Source: Acutalibacteraceae bacterium (lineage in GTDB: Bacteria > Bacillota > Clostridia > Oscillospirales > Acutalibacteraceae). From it: a stretch of DNA of 64,000 nt. How positions within the stretch are numbered: the stretch's first letter is position 1; each line of letters starts with the position of its first letter. Both the position numbers and the translations under genes were made by a program. Below, piece by piece: positions 57,969 to 63,742 of this stretch. The notes below the pieces were generated by a model. That model searched no databases. It had not been told where the DNA came from and saw only the letters and a program-made list of their open reading frames with translations. The stretch is taken from positions 11,154-75,153 of the forward strand of contig JAZTZY010000013.1 of NCBI GenBank assembly GCA_045637705.1, in the 5' to 3' direction.

Positions 57969-59207
57969 ATGGCATACACAGAGCTTATTAAAAACTTTGA
58001 GCGAATCCGTGACTATATGAGAGAGTTTTATGTTTACGGCTTTAAAAGCAGAGATGAATACGACAAAAAGAGTGCCCGTTCCTATGACAATGAACGCCGC
58101 AGAATTGAAAGCTATCTCGGTGAATATATGGGATTCCGTCAGAGCGAAAAGGGCAAGAATGTTTTTCTTTCTATAGACAGCCGTTCGGTTTCACATAATC
58201 CGCTTTACAGTGTGCTTAAATCAAAAAGCTTTACTGACGGTGATATAACTCTGCATTTTATTATATTTGATATTTTGTGTTCACCTGAAGTTACTTTGTC
58301 ACTTTCCGAAATTACAGATAAAATTGACAGCGAATATCTTTCCTGCTTCAGAGAGTCTATGGTGTTTGACGAGTCAACCGTCCGTAAGAAGCTTAAGGAA
58401 TATGTAGAACTCGGACTTGTACTATGCCATAAGGATGGCAAAAAGGTGCTTTATTCAAGAAGTACCGACACTGATATCTCCGAGCTTTGTGATGTTATAT
58501 CTTTTTTCAGCGAGGCGGGACTTTGCGGTGTTGTCGGCAGTTTTCTGCTCGATAAATTTTCTTCGATTGAGGATTGCTTTTCATTCAAGCATCATTACAT
58601 AACCCACGCTCTTGAAAGTGAGGTTCTGTATAAGGTTTTTGATGCGATTTCACAGAAAAGAATTCTCACAGTAACAAACACATCACGCCGTACACAAAAT
58701 GACCGCATAGAAGAAACAGTGCCGCTGAAGGTGCTTATAAGTGTACAGAACGGCAGAAGATATCTTGCCGCGTATTCGATAAGCTACAAGTATTACAAGG
58801 TTTACCGTCTTGACTATCTCAGTGATATAAATATTGGTGAGTTTTACAGTGACTTTGACGAAAGAAGAGAAAATTTCTCTCTGATGCAAAAAAATATGTG
58901 GGGTGTCGTCTGTGATGAAAGACGGCCTCTTGAACATATTGAATTTACTGTACATATTGGTAGGGATGAGGAGTACATTTACCGCAGACTTTTAAGAGAA
59001 AAGCGTTGCGGTACAGTAGAGCGAATTGATGAAATAACTTGCCGTTTCTCTGCTGATGTTTACGACTCAAGTGAGCTTAATCCCTGGATTCGTACCTTTA
59101 TAGGCAGAATTGAAAACATAGAGTATTCCAATAAGCTTTACGAAAACCGATTCAATATGGACTTGCAGGATATGTACCGTCTTTATGGCTTGGGAGGTGA
59201 GGAATAA
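57969..59207 (+). CDS. WYL-domain protein (PafB/PafC-like, with WCX-like C-terminus), first of a pair
   Basis: WYL-type segment VPLKVLISVQNGRRYLAAYSISYKYYKVYRLDYLSDINIGE. C-terminal WCX-like segment (NPWIRTFIGRIENIE). AGGAGG RBS; ATG at 57969. Confidence 0.6.
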   Translation: MAYTELIKNFERIRDYMREFYVYGFKSRDEYDKKSARSYDNERRRIESYLGEYMGFRQSEKGKNVFLSIDSRSVSHNPLYSVLKSKSFTDGDITLHFIIFDILCSPEVTLSLSEITDKIDSEYLSCFRESMVFDESTVRKKLKEYVELGLVLCHKDGKKVLYSRSTDTDISELCDVISFFSEAGLCGVVGSFLLDKFSSIEDCFSFKHHYITHALESEVLYKVFDAISQKRILTVTNTSRRTQNDRIEETVPLKVLISVQNGRRYLAAYSISYKYYKVYRLDYLSDINIGEFYSDFDERRENFSLMQKNMWGVVCDERRPLEHIEFTVHIGRDEEYIYRRLLREKRCGTVERIDEITCRFSADVYDSSELNPWIRTFIGRIENIEYSNKLYENRFNMDLQDMYRLYGLGGEE

Positions 59208-60124
59208 TGCTCTTTCACGAGATTTACGGCTGTTACTATAATGCTGTTGCAGAAATCCTCCATCAGGCTGTGAACGGTGAGCTTACAGAAAAGGAAATGC
59301 ATAAAATCATATCCGAAAAAGCCTTTTCGGAAAGCTTTCTTACCGTAATACCATCACTTAATGACGAAAAATGGCAATTGCTGAAAAAGGATTTATCCAC
59401 ACCGATTAAAAATGAGCCGTCTATGCCGTTGACCGAATTACAAAAGCGATGGCTGAAATCAATAAGCCTTGACCCGAGGGTTAAGCTTTTTGATGCAGAT
59501 TTCAGCTTTCTTGATGATGTGGAGCCTTTGTTCACACCTGATGATTATACTGTTTTTGACAAGTATAACGATGGCGATGATTTTGAAAATGAAAATTATA
59601 TAAATGTTTTTCGCAAACTTATGTATGCCTTGAAAAACAAAAAGAAAGTAAAAATCGGTTATCACGGAGCAAAGGGAACGTTCCGCATTTTTGTAGGTGA
59701 CCCATATAAAATGGAGTATTCCGAAAAGGATGATAAATTCAGAGTTCTTATCCGCTCTTGCAGAAACGGACCGATGTTAAGGGTTGACGGAATAGAAAGT
59801 GTAACCATTATCGGTGATGCTTTTGCCGAAAATACACGGGAAGTGCTTGAAAGTACAGAGCATATAACTTTGGAGCTTCTCGACCACAGAAACGCTCTCG
59901 AAAGAGTAATGCTTCATTTTGCACACTTTAAAAAAGAGGTTGAAAAAATCGGTGATGAAAGATACCGTATAAAGATTTTCTATGACGCTTCTGATGAAAC
60001 AGAGCTTGTTATCAGAGTTTTATCATTCGGGCCTTTTGTTGAAGTAACCGAACCGCAGAATTTCAGAAATCTTATCATAGACCGCCTGAAAAAACAAAAA
60101 AATATTCAAAATAAAGAGTTGTGA
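59207..60124 (+). CDS. WYL-WCX domain protein, second of the pair
   Basis: KVKIGYHGAKGTFRIFVGDPYKMEYSEKDDKFRVLIRSCRNGPMLRVDGIESVTIIGD (WYL pattern) and VIRVLSFGPFVEVTEPQNFRNLI (WCX pattern). TAATG overlap with the upstream gene. Confidence 0.65.
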   Translation: MLFHEIYGCYYNAVAEILHQAVNGELTEKEMHKIISEKAFSESFLTVIPSLNDEKWQLLKKDLSTPIKNEPSMPLTELQKRWLKSISLDPRVKLFDADFSFLDDVEPLFTPDDYTVFDKYNDGDDFENENYINVFRKLMYALKNKKKVKIGYHGAKGTFRIFVGDPYKMEYSEKDDKFRVLIRSCRNGPMLRVDGIESVTIIGDAFAENTREVLESTEHITLELLDHRNALERVMLHFAHFKKEVEKIGDERYRIKIFYDASDETELVIRVLSFGPFVEVTEPQNFRNLIIDRLKKQKNIQNKEL

Positions 60125-60304
60125 GCTTGATTTTCGTCAAGTTCGCAACTTTTTTTCCGTGAAAAAACAGTTTCTGATTGGTAGAATATGGTTGTAAAGT
60201 TGCTTCGGATAGTGTTTGAACTCACTTCGGTGCACGAGGATTTTCCAAAGTGTATGCCTGAAGAACTTTGCGCTTGGCAATCGAGAGAGTCTGTAAAACT
60301 CACG

Positions 60305-60394
60305 GTCGATGAGGTTCAAATCCTCTTTGTGGACTTTTAATCCACCCTTTACGCGGGTTCGAATCCCGCCGTACGTAATTATAACGTATCGCCA
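60305..60394 (+). ncRNA. tRNA-like structured element (candidate tRNA-mimic ncRNA or tRNA remnant)
   Basis: gaggTTCAAATcctc (60311-60325); gtgga-cttttaa-tccac anticodon-arm-like hairpin with a UUU 'anticodon' (60329-60345); gcgggTTCGAATcccgc T-arm (60353-60369); tacgt-aattata-acgta hairpin then cGCCA (60371-60394). No canonical D-arm or 5' acceptor strand. Confidence 0.45.
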
Positions 60395-62459: not shown

Positions 62460-62461
62460 CT

Positions 62462-63682
62462 ATGTTAGAAATCAGCGGAAAGTTTTGTACCGCAAAGGTT
62501 TTTATTGATACAGTTGAAGATACCGCCAAGGAGCAGATTAAAACACTCTGCGACCAGAGCTTTGCCGAAGGGTGTAAAATCCGCATTATGCCTGACGTTC
62601 ACGCAGGTGCAGGCTGTGTAATCGGCTTTACAGCTAACCTTGGAGCAAGGGTTATTCCTAACATTGTCGGTGTTGACATCGGATGTGGTATGCTTACGGT
62701 TGACCTTGGTTTTAACGATGTGGATTTTGAAAAGCTCGACCGAATCATAAGAGATAAAATCCCTTCAGGTATGGAGGTTCAGCCTGGCAGACTTATCCGT
62801 TTGCCCGAAATACAAAATCTTCATTGCTACAGAGAGCTTAAGGATGCCAAAAGACTTGAGAGAAGCGTAGGCTCACTTGGTGGCGGTAATCATTTCATTG
62901 AGATTGATGTTGACGACGAGGGAAGAAGATACCTTGTTATTCACTCAGGCAGCCGTAATTTAGGAAAGCAGGTTGCTGATATTTATCAGAAAATGGCTAT
63001 TGAGATTCACCGTGGTATTGAGGAATACTGGGCAGAGCGTGACAGAGTAATTACCGAATACAAGGCTCAGGGCAGAAGAAAAGAAATAGAATCAACCTTA
63101 AAGGAAATGAAGAAAGCCTTTCAGTTAAAGGTTACAGAAGTTCCTGAAGAGCTTTGCTACCTTGAGGGCAAATACCGTGATATGTATCTTCACGATATGC
63201 AGTTCTGTCAGCAGTTTGCTCACCTTAACCGTTTCATGATGGCTAAGCTTATACTTAACAATCTTTTCGGTAAAGAGGTTGAGGATTTCGAGCATTTTGA
63301 GACAGTGCACAATTATATTGATATGGAATCAAACATAATCCGTAAGGGTGCAGTATCTGCTAAGAACGGTGAAAAGCTTCTTATCCCTATCAATATGCGT
63401 GACGGAAGCCTTATTTGTGTCGGCAAGGGCAATGAGGACTGGAACTGTTCGGCTCCTCACGGTGCAGGTAGACTTTTCAGTAGAAATACTGCAAAGGATA
63501 AGTTTACCGTTGAGGAGTTTCAGAAGAGCATGGAAGGAATTTTCAGCACTTGCATCAGTGACAGAACTCTTGACGAAAGTCCTATGGCATATAAGAATAT
63601 GGACGATATAGTTAACAATATTACTTCTACGGCAGATATTGTTAAGGTTATTAAGCCTGTGTATAATTTCAAGGCGGAATAA
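62462..63682 (+). CDS. rtcB: RNA 3'-phosphate/5'-OH ligase RtcB
   Basis: MPDVHAGAGCVIGF, GGGNHFIEI and APHGAGR metal/GTP-binding motifs. About 406 aa. Confidence 0.9.
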   Translation: MLEISGKFCTAKVFIDTVEDTAKEQIKTLCDQSFAEGCKIRIMPDVHAGAGCVIGFTANLGARVIPNIVGVDIGCGMLTVDLGFNDVDFEKLDRIIRDKIPSGMEVQPGRLIRLPEIQNLHCYRELKDAKRLERSVGSLGGGNHFIEIDVDDEGRRYLVIHSGSRNLGKQVADIYQKMAIEIHRGIEEYWAERDRVITEYKAQGRRKEIESTLKEMKKAFQLKVTEVPEELCYLEGKYRDMYLHDMQFCQQFAHLNRFMMAKLILNNLFGKEVEDFEHFETVHNYIDMESNIIRKGAVSAKNGEKLLIPINMRDGSLICVGKGNEDWNCSAPHGAGRLFSRNTAKDKFTVEEFQKSMEGIFSTCISDRTLDESPMAYKNMDDIVNNITSTADIVKVIKPVYNFKAE

Positions 63683-63742
63683 AGTGAATGACATCTCAAA
63701 TCTGAACCAATGCGGTTAGATGGAGATGTCTTTTGTTTTTTA
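63683..63742 (+). repeat. Terminator-like hairpin, copy 2 of the approximately 55-nt direct repeat
   Basis: gtgaatgacatctcaaatctgaaccaatgcggttagatggagatgtcttttgtttttt. Abuts the rtcB stop exactly as copy 1 abuts tRNA-Cys. Confidence 0.7.

Follow-up and report, generated by a model that had tools for sequence, protein, structure and literature searches.

A stretch of 64,000 nt from an Acutalibacteraceae bacterium (GenBank assembly GCA_045637705.1, contig JAZTZY010000013.1, positions 11,154 to 75,153 of the forward strand), hereafter the window, contains a cassette in which two coupled genes for WYL-domain proteins (WYL1 and WYL2) are followed by a long non-coding spacer, a gene for a Band-7/SPFH protein, a gene for a protein designated X, and rtcB, for an RNA ligase. 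With slightly better than even confidence, we favour reading this locus as an inducible RNA-repair cassette, formed by RtcB, the SPFH protein and a tRNA mimic, under a WYL pair resembling the activators PafBC and DriD. Comparison with relatives indicates that the spacer encodes a leader RNA of ~470 nt with three covariation-supported domains, and that the RNA-repair transcription units next to the WYL pair all have the same promoter element, at a fixed spacing, at their head. Coordinates are window positions, and all five module open reading frames (ORFs) lie on the plus strand:

57969-59207, plus strand: WYL1, 412 aa from the ATG at 57969 (the ORF list begins at a GTG at 57960)
59207-60124, plus strand: WYL2, 305 aa, with a start overlapping the WYL1 stop (TAATG)
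60125-60665, plus strand: gap of 541 bp without ORF, between WYL2 and the Band-7 gene
60666-61769, plus strand: Band-7/SPFH ('slipin') protein, 367 aa, Pfam Band_7 1.8e-29
61905-62459, plus strand: protein X, 184 aa, acidic and helical, with the ATG at 61905 favoured by the homologue alignment
62462-63682, plus strand: RtcB, of the 3'-phosphate/5'-OH RNA ligase family, Pfam RtcB 1.1e-62

The start of WYL1 at ATG 57969 is favoured because its homologues begin with MAY in the alignment. Homologue alignment also gives ATG 62462, behind GGAAAGGAAG, as the likely start of rtcB (62444 in the ORF list), and the distance of 3 nt that the first-pass annotation had seen between the X stop (last base at 62459) and the rtcB start is thus correct.

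Species-representative genomes were scanned with an alignment of the Band-7 protein, which yielded 317 confirmed matches, and 80 loci were kept. These derive from metagenome-assembled genomes (MAGs) labelled Acutalibacteraceae, Oscillospiraceae, Lachnospiraceae, Christensenellaceae and others; MAGs labelled Acutalibacteraceae or Eubacteriales match the window at about 98% identity. The order WYL1-WYL2-spacer-Band-7-RtcB is common in the species-representative Clostridia genomes, with the WYL pair directly upstream in 52 of the 55 evaluable loci and RtcB directly downstream of Band-7 in 60 of 65. The contigs of three WYL1 homologues (60-66% identity) likewise carry WYL1, WYL2, a gap of ~480 nt, Band_7 and RtcB, embedded in unrelated flanks. 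WYL1 (>7000 homologues) and the Band-7 protein each have thousands of Clostridia homologues at 55-70% identity.

The features recognized in and around the spacer are the following:

60118-60156, plus strand: terminator-like hairpin belonging to the WYL operon, GTTGTGAGCTTGA / TCAAGTTCGCAAC and then a T7 run, as read from the sequence
60142-60187, plus strand: predicted promoter, with upstream element TTCGCAACTTTTTTTCCGTGA (60142-60162), a 20-nt spacer and extended -10 TGGTAGAAT (60179-60187)
60194-60271, plus strand: leader 5' domain, a three-way junction (model R2 match 60189-60278, 73.6 bits)
60272-60345, plus strand: variable middle modules, an AAUCGA..UCGAU stem with inner hairpin, and T-arm-like and anticodon-arm-like hairpins
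60312-60326, plus strand: second T-arm-like hairpin, GAGGUUCAAAUCCUC
60329-60345, plus strand: anticodon-arm-like hairpin, GUGGA-CUUUUAA-UCCAC
60353-60418, plus strand: circularly permuted tRNA-like core (model R1 match 60346-60425, 82.6 bits)
60353-60369, plus strand: core T-arm, loop UUCGAAU
60371-60389, plus strand: core acceptor-like hairpin closed by a loop
60391-60404, plus strand: core D-arm-like hairpin, with invariant GG
60407-60418, plus strand: core tetraloop hairpin
60432-60448, plus strand: linker hairpin GUACAC-UUUAU-GUGUGC, four pairs, all with two-sided changes among relatives
60468-60631, plus strand: leader 3' domain, a rod of ~165 nt with six nested helices closed by ACAGUUGCUC / GAGCGACUGU
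61800-61872, plus strand: second terminator/promoter cassette, CTCGCAAC-T6-CCGTG (61828-61846), a 20-nt spacer and TGGTAAAAT (61864-61872)

The upstream element of the leader promoter, TTCGCAGC-T7-CCGTG (20 nt), occurs as TTCGCA[G/A]C-T7-CCGTG, with minor variants at most, upstream of the leader in all of the ~80 loci listed. Its distance to the extended -10, which across relatives reads TGGTAAAAT, is exactly 20 nt in these ~80 loci, while the intervening sequence varies freely. The promoter has no consensus -35, and only 'GTG' is conserved at the -35 position; abutting this position, the element forms an imperfect inverted repeat (TTCNCNG-N9-CNGNGAA). Within the window the element is unique at up to three mismatches, with 0.02 matches expected by chance. 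The 3' arm and T-run of the WYL-operon terminator hairpin belong to this conserved element, whereas the 5' arm varies among relatives in such a way that pairing with the invariant 3' arm is maintained; the element also persists in relatives that have a separate terminator. The stretch 60142-60162 is a candidate binding site for WYL1/WYL2. The second cassette precedes X-rtcB and is confined to the closest relatives of the window (L008-L016; loci among the relatives are numbered L), where it is predicted to drive X-rtcB.

Transcription of the leader would start at about 60194. The first-pass annotation had described the spacer as an ORF-free region with tRNA-like motifs; a conserved RNA with a tRNA-like part is present, but as one section of a three-domain leader of ~470 nt and not as a small tRNA-like gene, and conservation in the gap alignments of relatives extends far past the T-arm. 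Covariance models derived from relatives (R1 for the core, R2 for the 5' domain) match the window with the scores given above. In the 5' domain, helix P1 pairs GUAAAGUU..CUUCGG with CCUGAAG..AACUUUGC, P2 is GUG/CAC and P3-P4 is GUGCAC-GGAnnnUCC-GUGUAU. Model R2 matched 75 sources, once per locus. Its helices have 92.6% of cells paired, two-sided changes in 16 of 26 pairs and a score that 0/500 shuffles reach, although these pair counts lean toward the structure because the alignment was fitted to R2. RNAalifold on MAFFT alignments failed to recover P1, which was obtained from a hand-drawn structure and realignment to R2; a long-range pairing between the 5' end and the D-arm, suggested by RNAalifold on the MAFFT alignments, was not adopted. 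The middle modules are confined to some of the relatives ('long forms').

For the core, 93.2% of cells are paired, with two-sided changes in 12 of 19 pairs; 0/500 shuffles reach the score, and slid controls pair 29-48%. The loop UUCGAAU and the GG of the D-loop are invariant among relatives. Model R1 has a strong match (34-93 bits) in ~75 of 84 sources, one per locus and upstream of Band_7; in these ~75 loci its place is between promoter and Band-7 gene. The 3' rod and linker hairpin were folded with RNAalifold and comprise 50 pairs, with 94.9% of cells paired and two-sided changes in 39 of the pairs; again 0/500 shuffles reach the score, and slid controls pair 31-44%. The conserved internal loops of the rod include GGAUACC, ACUYAAR and CCAAAAG..CUUUCCGC, and the rod has no match in Rfam. 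A scan of viral contigs for the 3'-domain motif returned 13 matches; they are probably due to chance, since the RNA models confirm none of them.

The order of elements in the core (T-arm, closed acceptor hairpin, D-arm) is that of YrlA, whose tRNA-like domain is a circularly permuted tRNA (10.1101/312249). Together with the covariation, this upholds the analogy drawn earlier with the YrlA loci that sit beside rtcB. Searches with Rfam 15 found no Y-RNA, YrlA or tRNA family in 60150-60520 (E up to 10) or on the leader of five related loci (E up to 0.5); the sole match to the leader in the window and these five relatives is an 18-nt fragment of a tmRNA T-arm (60352-60369 in the window). The flanks of the core form local hairpins and no stem closes its 5' and 3' sides, so that the RNA lacks the Ro-binding stem of YrlA; the window, like most of the related loci, is also devoid of a TROVE/Ro gene.

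At 60298-60377 ARAGORN places a 'tRNA-Lys' whose anticodon would lie at position 39; it draws on arms of the middle modules and takes a T-arm-like hairpin as the D-arm. This call, and the presence of a real tRNA cluster and an insertion sequence (IS) element 2-4 kb upstream, could mean that a decayed tRNA gene, or the remnant of an integration site, is all that the tRNA-like stretch represents, without a function of its own. However, the Rfam tRNA model (RF00005) is silent on the Band-7-linked RNA, and calls by ARAGORN in relatives are rare, inconsistent and use different arms, which marks the tRNA-Lys call as an artefact. Besides, the core is maintained with compensatory changes in ~75 loci, always between promoter and Band-7 gene. 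On the grounds of this covariation and positional conservation we rejected the remnant or attachment-site explanation, to which we assign practically no credence.

No intrinsic terminator is predicted between the leader promoter and the Band-7 gene, and the simplest view of the leader is thus that it forms the 5' part of the Band-7/rtcB transcript. The leader might then be mainly a cis-acting 5' untranslated region, similar to a riboswitch or attenuator, in which the mimic and the rod respond to tRNA status, to cleavage or to a protein factor and govern how far the Band-7/rtcB mRNA is translated or how stable it is, instead of yielding a free ribonucleoprotein cofactor. We consider this rather unlikely, although the structured leader reaches to about 20 nt ahead of the Band-7 ribosome-binding site, is always 5' of the genes and in the same orientation, and is followed, just past the rod, by a conserved ACCUUU-AAGGAGG segment. 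Against it, we found no mutually exclusive pairings that involve the ribosome-binding site, and a leader of 470 nt with three independent domains is far bigger than known cis regulators of this kind. Moreover, the RNAs internal to the Salmonella rsr-yrlBA-rtcBA operon are trans-acting Y RNAs bound by Rsr/Ro60 (10.1101/312249).

Comparison of the loci also revealed natural variants of the cassette. Additional copies of the promoter element occur in L076 (8334-11654), L067 (5117 onward), L025 (3334-5405) and L075 (4267), where they are followed by ~1 kb of non-coding DNA. This DNA contains a near-canonical tRNA-like element in L025 (3831-3903, Rfam tRNA 34.5 bits) and L076 (8672-8744), after which both loci encode a DUF2828/DUF7788 protein with a vWA-like DGSGSM motif, followed in L076 by an RlaP nucleotidyltransferase; a motif, ACAGCAAU, recurs in the non-coding regions ahead of the DUF2828 units. 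A cloverleaf-like element is found on the DUF2828 side of these cassettes and a permuted mimic on the Band-7 side. DUF2828 may be related to TROVE, but a search of PDB sequences with the DUF2828 protein gave no Ro60 match. A Band-7-less version is found in L100 (7681-12988 of IMGVR_UViG_3300045988_016381), with WYL1, WYL2, the promoter element, a non-coding RNA (ncRNA) of ~430 nt with two stem-closed modules that contain T-arms, RtcB and DUF2828/DUF7788, and with a large serine recombinase just upstream. Separately, in L037, L050, L052, L054 and L075 the WYL pair, leader and Band-7 gene have no adjoining RtcB, and the gene after Band-7 in L050 encodes a HIRAN-domain protein.

What stays constant in the cassette is thus the WYL pair together with the promoter element, a tRNA-like RNA and RtcB, whereas the scaffold protein varies. 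The sharing of one element among the RNA-repair units is the best, though indirect, evidence that the WYL pair controls their promoters; it supports, but does not prove, regulation of these units by the pair. The earlier suggestion that a WYL pair stands in the place of RtcR gains indirect support from this invariance.

The assignment of both proteins to the WYL group survived profile and fold searches. WYL1 scores above the gathering threshold of Pfam WYL (7e-5) and matches PADLOC WYL (1e-10); WYL2 matches PADLOC WYL (4.6e-12), Pfam WYL at only 0.04 and Pfam WCX at 6e-5 (23.7 bits, just under the cut-off of 23.9), and its homologues bear precomputed PF25583 matches. Their layouts are:

WYL1: basic/aromatic N-terminus, residues ~1-100; predicted winged helix-turn-helix (HTH), ~100-170; WYL, ~221-295; WCX-like, ~325-410
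WYL2: helical N-terminal region; WYL, residues ~129-205; WCX, ~218-303

We compared AlphaFold models, computed from homologue alignments (mean predicted local distance difference test, pLDDT, 67 for WYL1 and 76 for WYL2), with solved structures using Foldseek. For WYL2, PafC of the PafBC-RNA polymerase complex ranks first (9fnd_Y, E 1.4e-8) and DriD, PafBC, CapW and BrxR come next (range E 1e-8 to 1e-4); WYL1 matches DriD (6e-12), PafBC and BrxR (E 6e-12 to 1e-5). With a TM-score (normalised to the target) of 0.61-0.73, the C-terminal half of WYL1 can be superposed on the C-domain of DriD. The best fold matches are thus the activators DriD and PafBC, including their complexes with RNA polymerase. 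Similarity to solved WYL proteins at the sequence level is marginal (E 0.05-0.9), and comparing the profiles of WYL1 and WYL2 with each other gave no significant match either (probability 3.7%); the fold comparison alone was decisive. The winged helix of WYL1 is predicted at ~100-170, where matches of the ArsR/SmtB type are weak. Within the family, conservation is highest in residues 1-100 of WYL1 (57969-58270). They abound in Lys, Arg, Tyr and Phe, follow the pattern LIKNF..R.Y..FY.YGFK.R...S.RSYD.ERRR, match no family and may constitute a novel nucleic-acid-binding region.

PafB and PafC are encoded by adjacent genes and form a heterodimer of WYL-WCX proteins. The TAATG overlap of WYL1 and WYL2 is genuine, and an overlap of 1 or 4 nt is kept in nearly all relatives, which would fit a stoichiometric WYL1-WYL2 heteromer of the PafB/PafC kind; the initial comparison with PafB/PafC holds in that there are two coupled genes whose products have PafC, DriD and PafBC as best fold matches. 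At the target promoters of PafBC and DriD, a conserved upstream motif substitutes for a normal -35, and these activators bind a single-stranded nucleic-acid damage signal through the WYL domain. Their regulon is DNA repair, whereas that of the window WYL pair is predicted to be RNA repair. The window proteins further differ from PafBC and DriD in the additional conserved N-terminus of ~100 aa in WYL1 and in the lack of a recognisable HTH in WYL2.

BrxR and CapW, of HTH-WYL-WCX fold, are significant fold matches as well; they resemble the window proteins in the WYL-WCX part, with an HTH predicted for WYL1, and in heading a conflict-related cassette. The WYL pair could thus be a repressor of the BrxR/CapW type in a mobile anti-phage defence island, with the cassette serving mainly in phage conflict (abortive infection or counter-defence) and not in housekeeping RNA repair. 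The variable flanks of the cassette, the abutting IS3 element, the variant beside a serine recombinase on an IMG/VR contig and the GC content of the cassette (0.33-0.39, below most of the window) speak in its favour. On the other hand, PADLOC assigned the five module proteins to no defence model besides generic WYL, Csa3 or CARF, the promoter element occurs in only 2 of 2.9 million viral contigs, and the components are repair enzymes and scaffolds rather than effectors. In addition, BrxR and CapW are homodimers encoded by single genes that act on palindromic operators overlapping their own promoter; the window has two different coupled proteins, and an element upstream of the -35-less promoter of a downstream unit, an arrangement better suited to activation than to repression. 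We therefore give this alternative little credence.

For the RNA-repair cassette under a PafBC/DriD-like pair that we favour, we infer the heteromer, its DNA binding, the direction of regulation, the ligand, the processing of the RNA and the ribonucleoprotein. WYL1 and WYL2 would form a heteromer that binds the TTCGCAGC-T7-CCGTG element of the -35-less promoter. On binding a single-stranded nucleic acid that signals damage, plausibly RNA fragments, their WYL domains would turn transcription on, in parallel with PafBC and DriD, which respond to single-stranded DNA (ssDNA), and with RtcR, which responds to tRNA fragments. The leader would be transcribed together with the SPFH gene and rtcB, as no terminator intervenes, and processed to a stable tRNA-mimic RNA. 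This RNA would assemble with an oligomeric SPFH scaffold, as Y RNA does with Ro60, and the assembly would recruit or position RtcB on broken tRNA or rRNA.

Several observations count against this proposal. In the ~80 loci, the promoter element was not found upstream of the WYL genes themselves, and at 3 of the 55 loci the RNA and the promoter element are present without a WYL pair within 6 kb; furthermore, because the element overlaps the terminator hairpin, part of its conservation could serve termination. Profile searches detected no HTH in WYL2, whose helical N-terminus is modelled with low to moderate confidence, and the N-terminal ~100 residues of WYL1 are likewise of low confidence (pLDDT 30-47). 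The heteromer is predicted from gene coupling, and the matches to CapW and BrxR, which are repressors, would also be compatible with repression by the WYL pair. Lastly, the leader could act in cis instead of as a free RNA.

The source of the ligand may also be conceived otherwise, in a more specific form of the suggestion in the first-pass annotation that the tRNA-like RNA is the ligand. The tRNA mimic could be a decoy or sentinel whose cleavage by anticodon nucleases or ribotoxins releases fragments that bind the WYL domains and induce the cassette, the signal ending once RtcB reseals the RNA. It agrees with this idea that solved WYL relatives bind single-stranded nucleic acids (ssDNA in DriD, CapW and PafBC; also the Cas13d-associated 6oaw), that tRNA fragments activate RtcR (PMC7790460), and that peripheral hairpins of the leader have anticodon-loop-like loops of 7 nt, CU-NNN-AA, for example with GUC and UUU. 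The anticodon-like hairpin is, however, variable and missing in some relatives, such as L003 and L005, and the scheme requires a basal level of RNA, since the RNA is made from the regulated promoter itself. We judge it quite unlikely. At its most elaborate, the leader would represent a new class of large structured RNA, a sentinel of RNA damage: tRNA-attacking ribotoxins would cut a permuted tRNA mimic at the 5' end of the transcript of a repair operon, a heterodimeric WYL activator would have the resulting fragments as its ligand, and the intact RNA, bound to a soluble cage of SPFH, would pass broken ends on to RtcB, which by resealing the sentinel would reset the circuit. This version is a speculation to which we attach only a slim chance.

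The Band-7 protein matches PF01145 (1.8e-29) over residues 139-307. It had been described as internally duplicated; what is repeated is an N-terminal beta segment of ~35 aa, present in three copies (at about residues 3-39, 69-105 and 134-170) ahead of a single complete SPFH domain. Homologues are 62-70% identical across Clostridia and are named 'slipin family protein' in the source databases. Eight of them (P0122-P0125, P0148, P0154, P0203 and P0212) have 496-639 aa, compared with about 367, and may carry extra copies of the N-terminal beta segment. On reading the translation, with no transmembrane predictor applied, we saw no hydrophobic membrane segment, and no NfeD gene adjoins the Band-7 gene at the loci of three relatives that were looked up; the protein is predicted to be cytoplasmic and soluble.

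The identification of RtcB was confirmed: PF01139 covers residues 45-410, and PDVHAGAGC (including PDVHAGAG), GGGNHF and PHGAGR are present. Since it scores below the NCBIfam equivalog cut-offs, it belongs to a divergent subfamily. Protein X, which had been put forward as a partner in the module, is missing from all relatives at 55-69% identity and present only in those at 92% or more; it is for this reason rejected as a module member and is a lineage-specific insertion. It has no family over threshold (DUF2247, 0.0011, is under the cut-off), and neither Pfam on 29 family members nor a profile search of PDB sequences gave a match. Its family amounts to 134 representative clusters in 1.84 billion proteins; a first metagenome scan found no relatives and a second found 11 loci, of which the one readable, L092, has the homologue among ABC-transporter-like genes with no RtcB nearby.

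The surroundings of the cassette in the window include:

56037-56366: cluster of tRNA-Val, Asp, Gly and Cys genes, upstream of the cassette
56562-57692, minus strand: transposase of the IS3 family, with rve core and HTH_Tnp_1, adjoining the cassette on its upstream side

The IS noted beside the module is thus an IS3-family element adjoining the cassette; this element and its flank are missing from the closest related loci. The GC content is 0.33-0.39 over 57001-64000 and about 0.40-0.47 in most of the remaining window. Flanks differ even among relatives that are 92-98% identical, and only L008 has 291 bp upstream in common with the window. Another close relative, L014, carries directly upstream of the cassette (697-3107, minus strand) a distinct, canonical HTH_11-WYL-WCX regulator of 330 aa, paired with a 461-aa protein without family match, which looks like a different WYL-headed module. 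The location in an accessory island, as first proposed, agrees with these variable flanks but is overstated, because the cassette itself is broadly conserved across several Clostridia families despite its variable surroundings.

The first-pass annotation regarded the SPFH protein as a novel partner of RtcB. However, Burroughs and Aravind (2016), as cited in a 2018 preprint (10.1101/312249), already described RtcB beside a Band-7 protein and a predicted, strongly tRNA-like RNA, named b7a-tRNA for its association with band 7, proposed that a scaffold, Band-7 or Ro, acts with a cognate RNA cofactor in RNA ligation, and noted YrlA-type RNAs occasionally beside Band-7. The b7a-tRNA lacked experimental validation as of that preprint, and we found no later experimental test of the Band-7/tRNA-like branch in the literature. 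An SPFH gene also lies within the Pseudomonas rtc locus (2026 paper), and the SPFH-RtcB-tRNA-like association must therefore be considered known. The b7a-tRNA system, as the citing preprint presents it, coincides with the window in having RtcB next to a Band-7 protein and a tRNA-like ncRNA, but its RNA is said to resemble a real tRNA, whereas that of the window is a permuted mimic within a ~470-nt three-domain leader, much larger than the RNA described there; the window cassette differs as well in its coupled WYL pair and invariant promoter element as regulator. In the literature on RtcB with WYL, SPFH or slipin, with Burroughs and Aravind (2016) represented through the citing preprint, we found no description of the WYL pair, the promoter element or the multi-domain leader, and the WYL-pair regulon and the large leader look new.

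Another parallel in organisation is the RtcR-regulated Rsr (Ro60)-YrlA/YrlB-RtcB-RtcA operon of Salmonella, also an RNA ligase operon with internal ncRNAs. Salmonella YrlA and the window core have in common the order of T-arm, closed acceptor stem-loop and D-arm, a canonical T-loop and the GG of the D-loop, and both systems have a dedicated ligand-sensing regulator, with a CARF domain in RtcR and WYL domains in the window cassette. They differ in the protein, since the window has SPFH at the position that Ro60 occupies in Salmonella, and in the promoter, which is of the sigma-70 type with an extended -10 in the window and of the sigma-54 type in the Salmonella operon.

The repair targets and the induction of bacterial RtcB systems are still largely open, and this locus gives the Band-7/tRNA-like branch a testable anatomy in abundant gut Clostridia: a promoter element, a candidate two-protein WYL sensor and a large RNA. 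It also offers natural variants that carry, in place of the SPFH scaffold or in addition to it, a DUF2828/vWA protein and a tRNA-like RNA belonging to this protein. Should the leader prove to be a stable RNA bound by SPFH, it would form a particle like that of Ro and Y RNA on an unrelated protein scaffold. If the WYL pair senses RNA fragments, RNA damage would join DNA damage and phage defence in the paradigm of WYL sensors, and the pair would be, should the sentinel idea be true, the first WYL sensor of RNA damage rather than of DNA damage.

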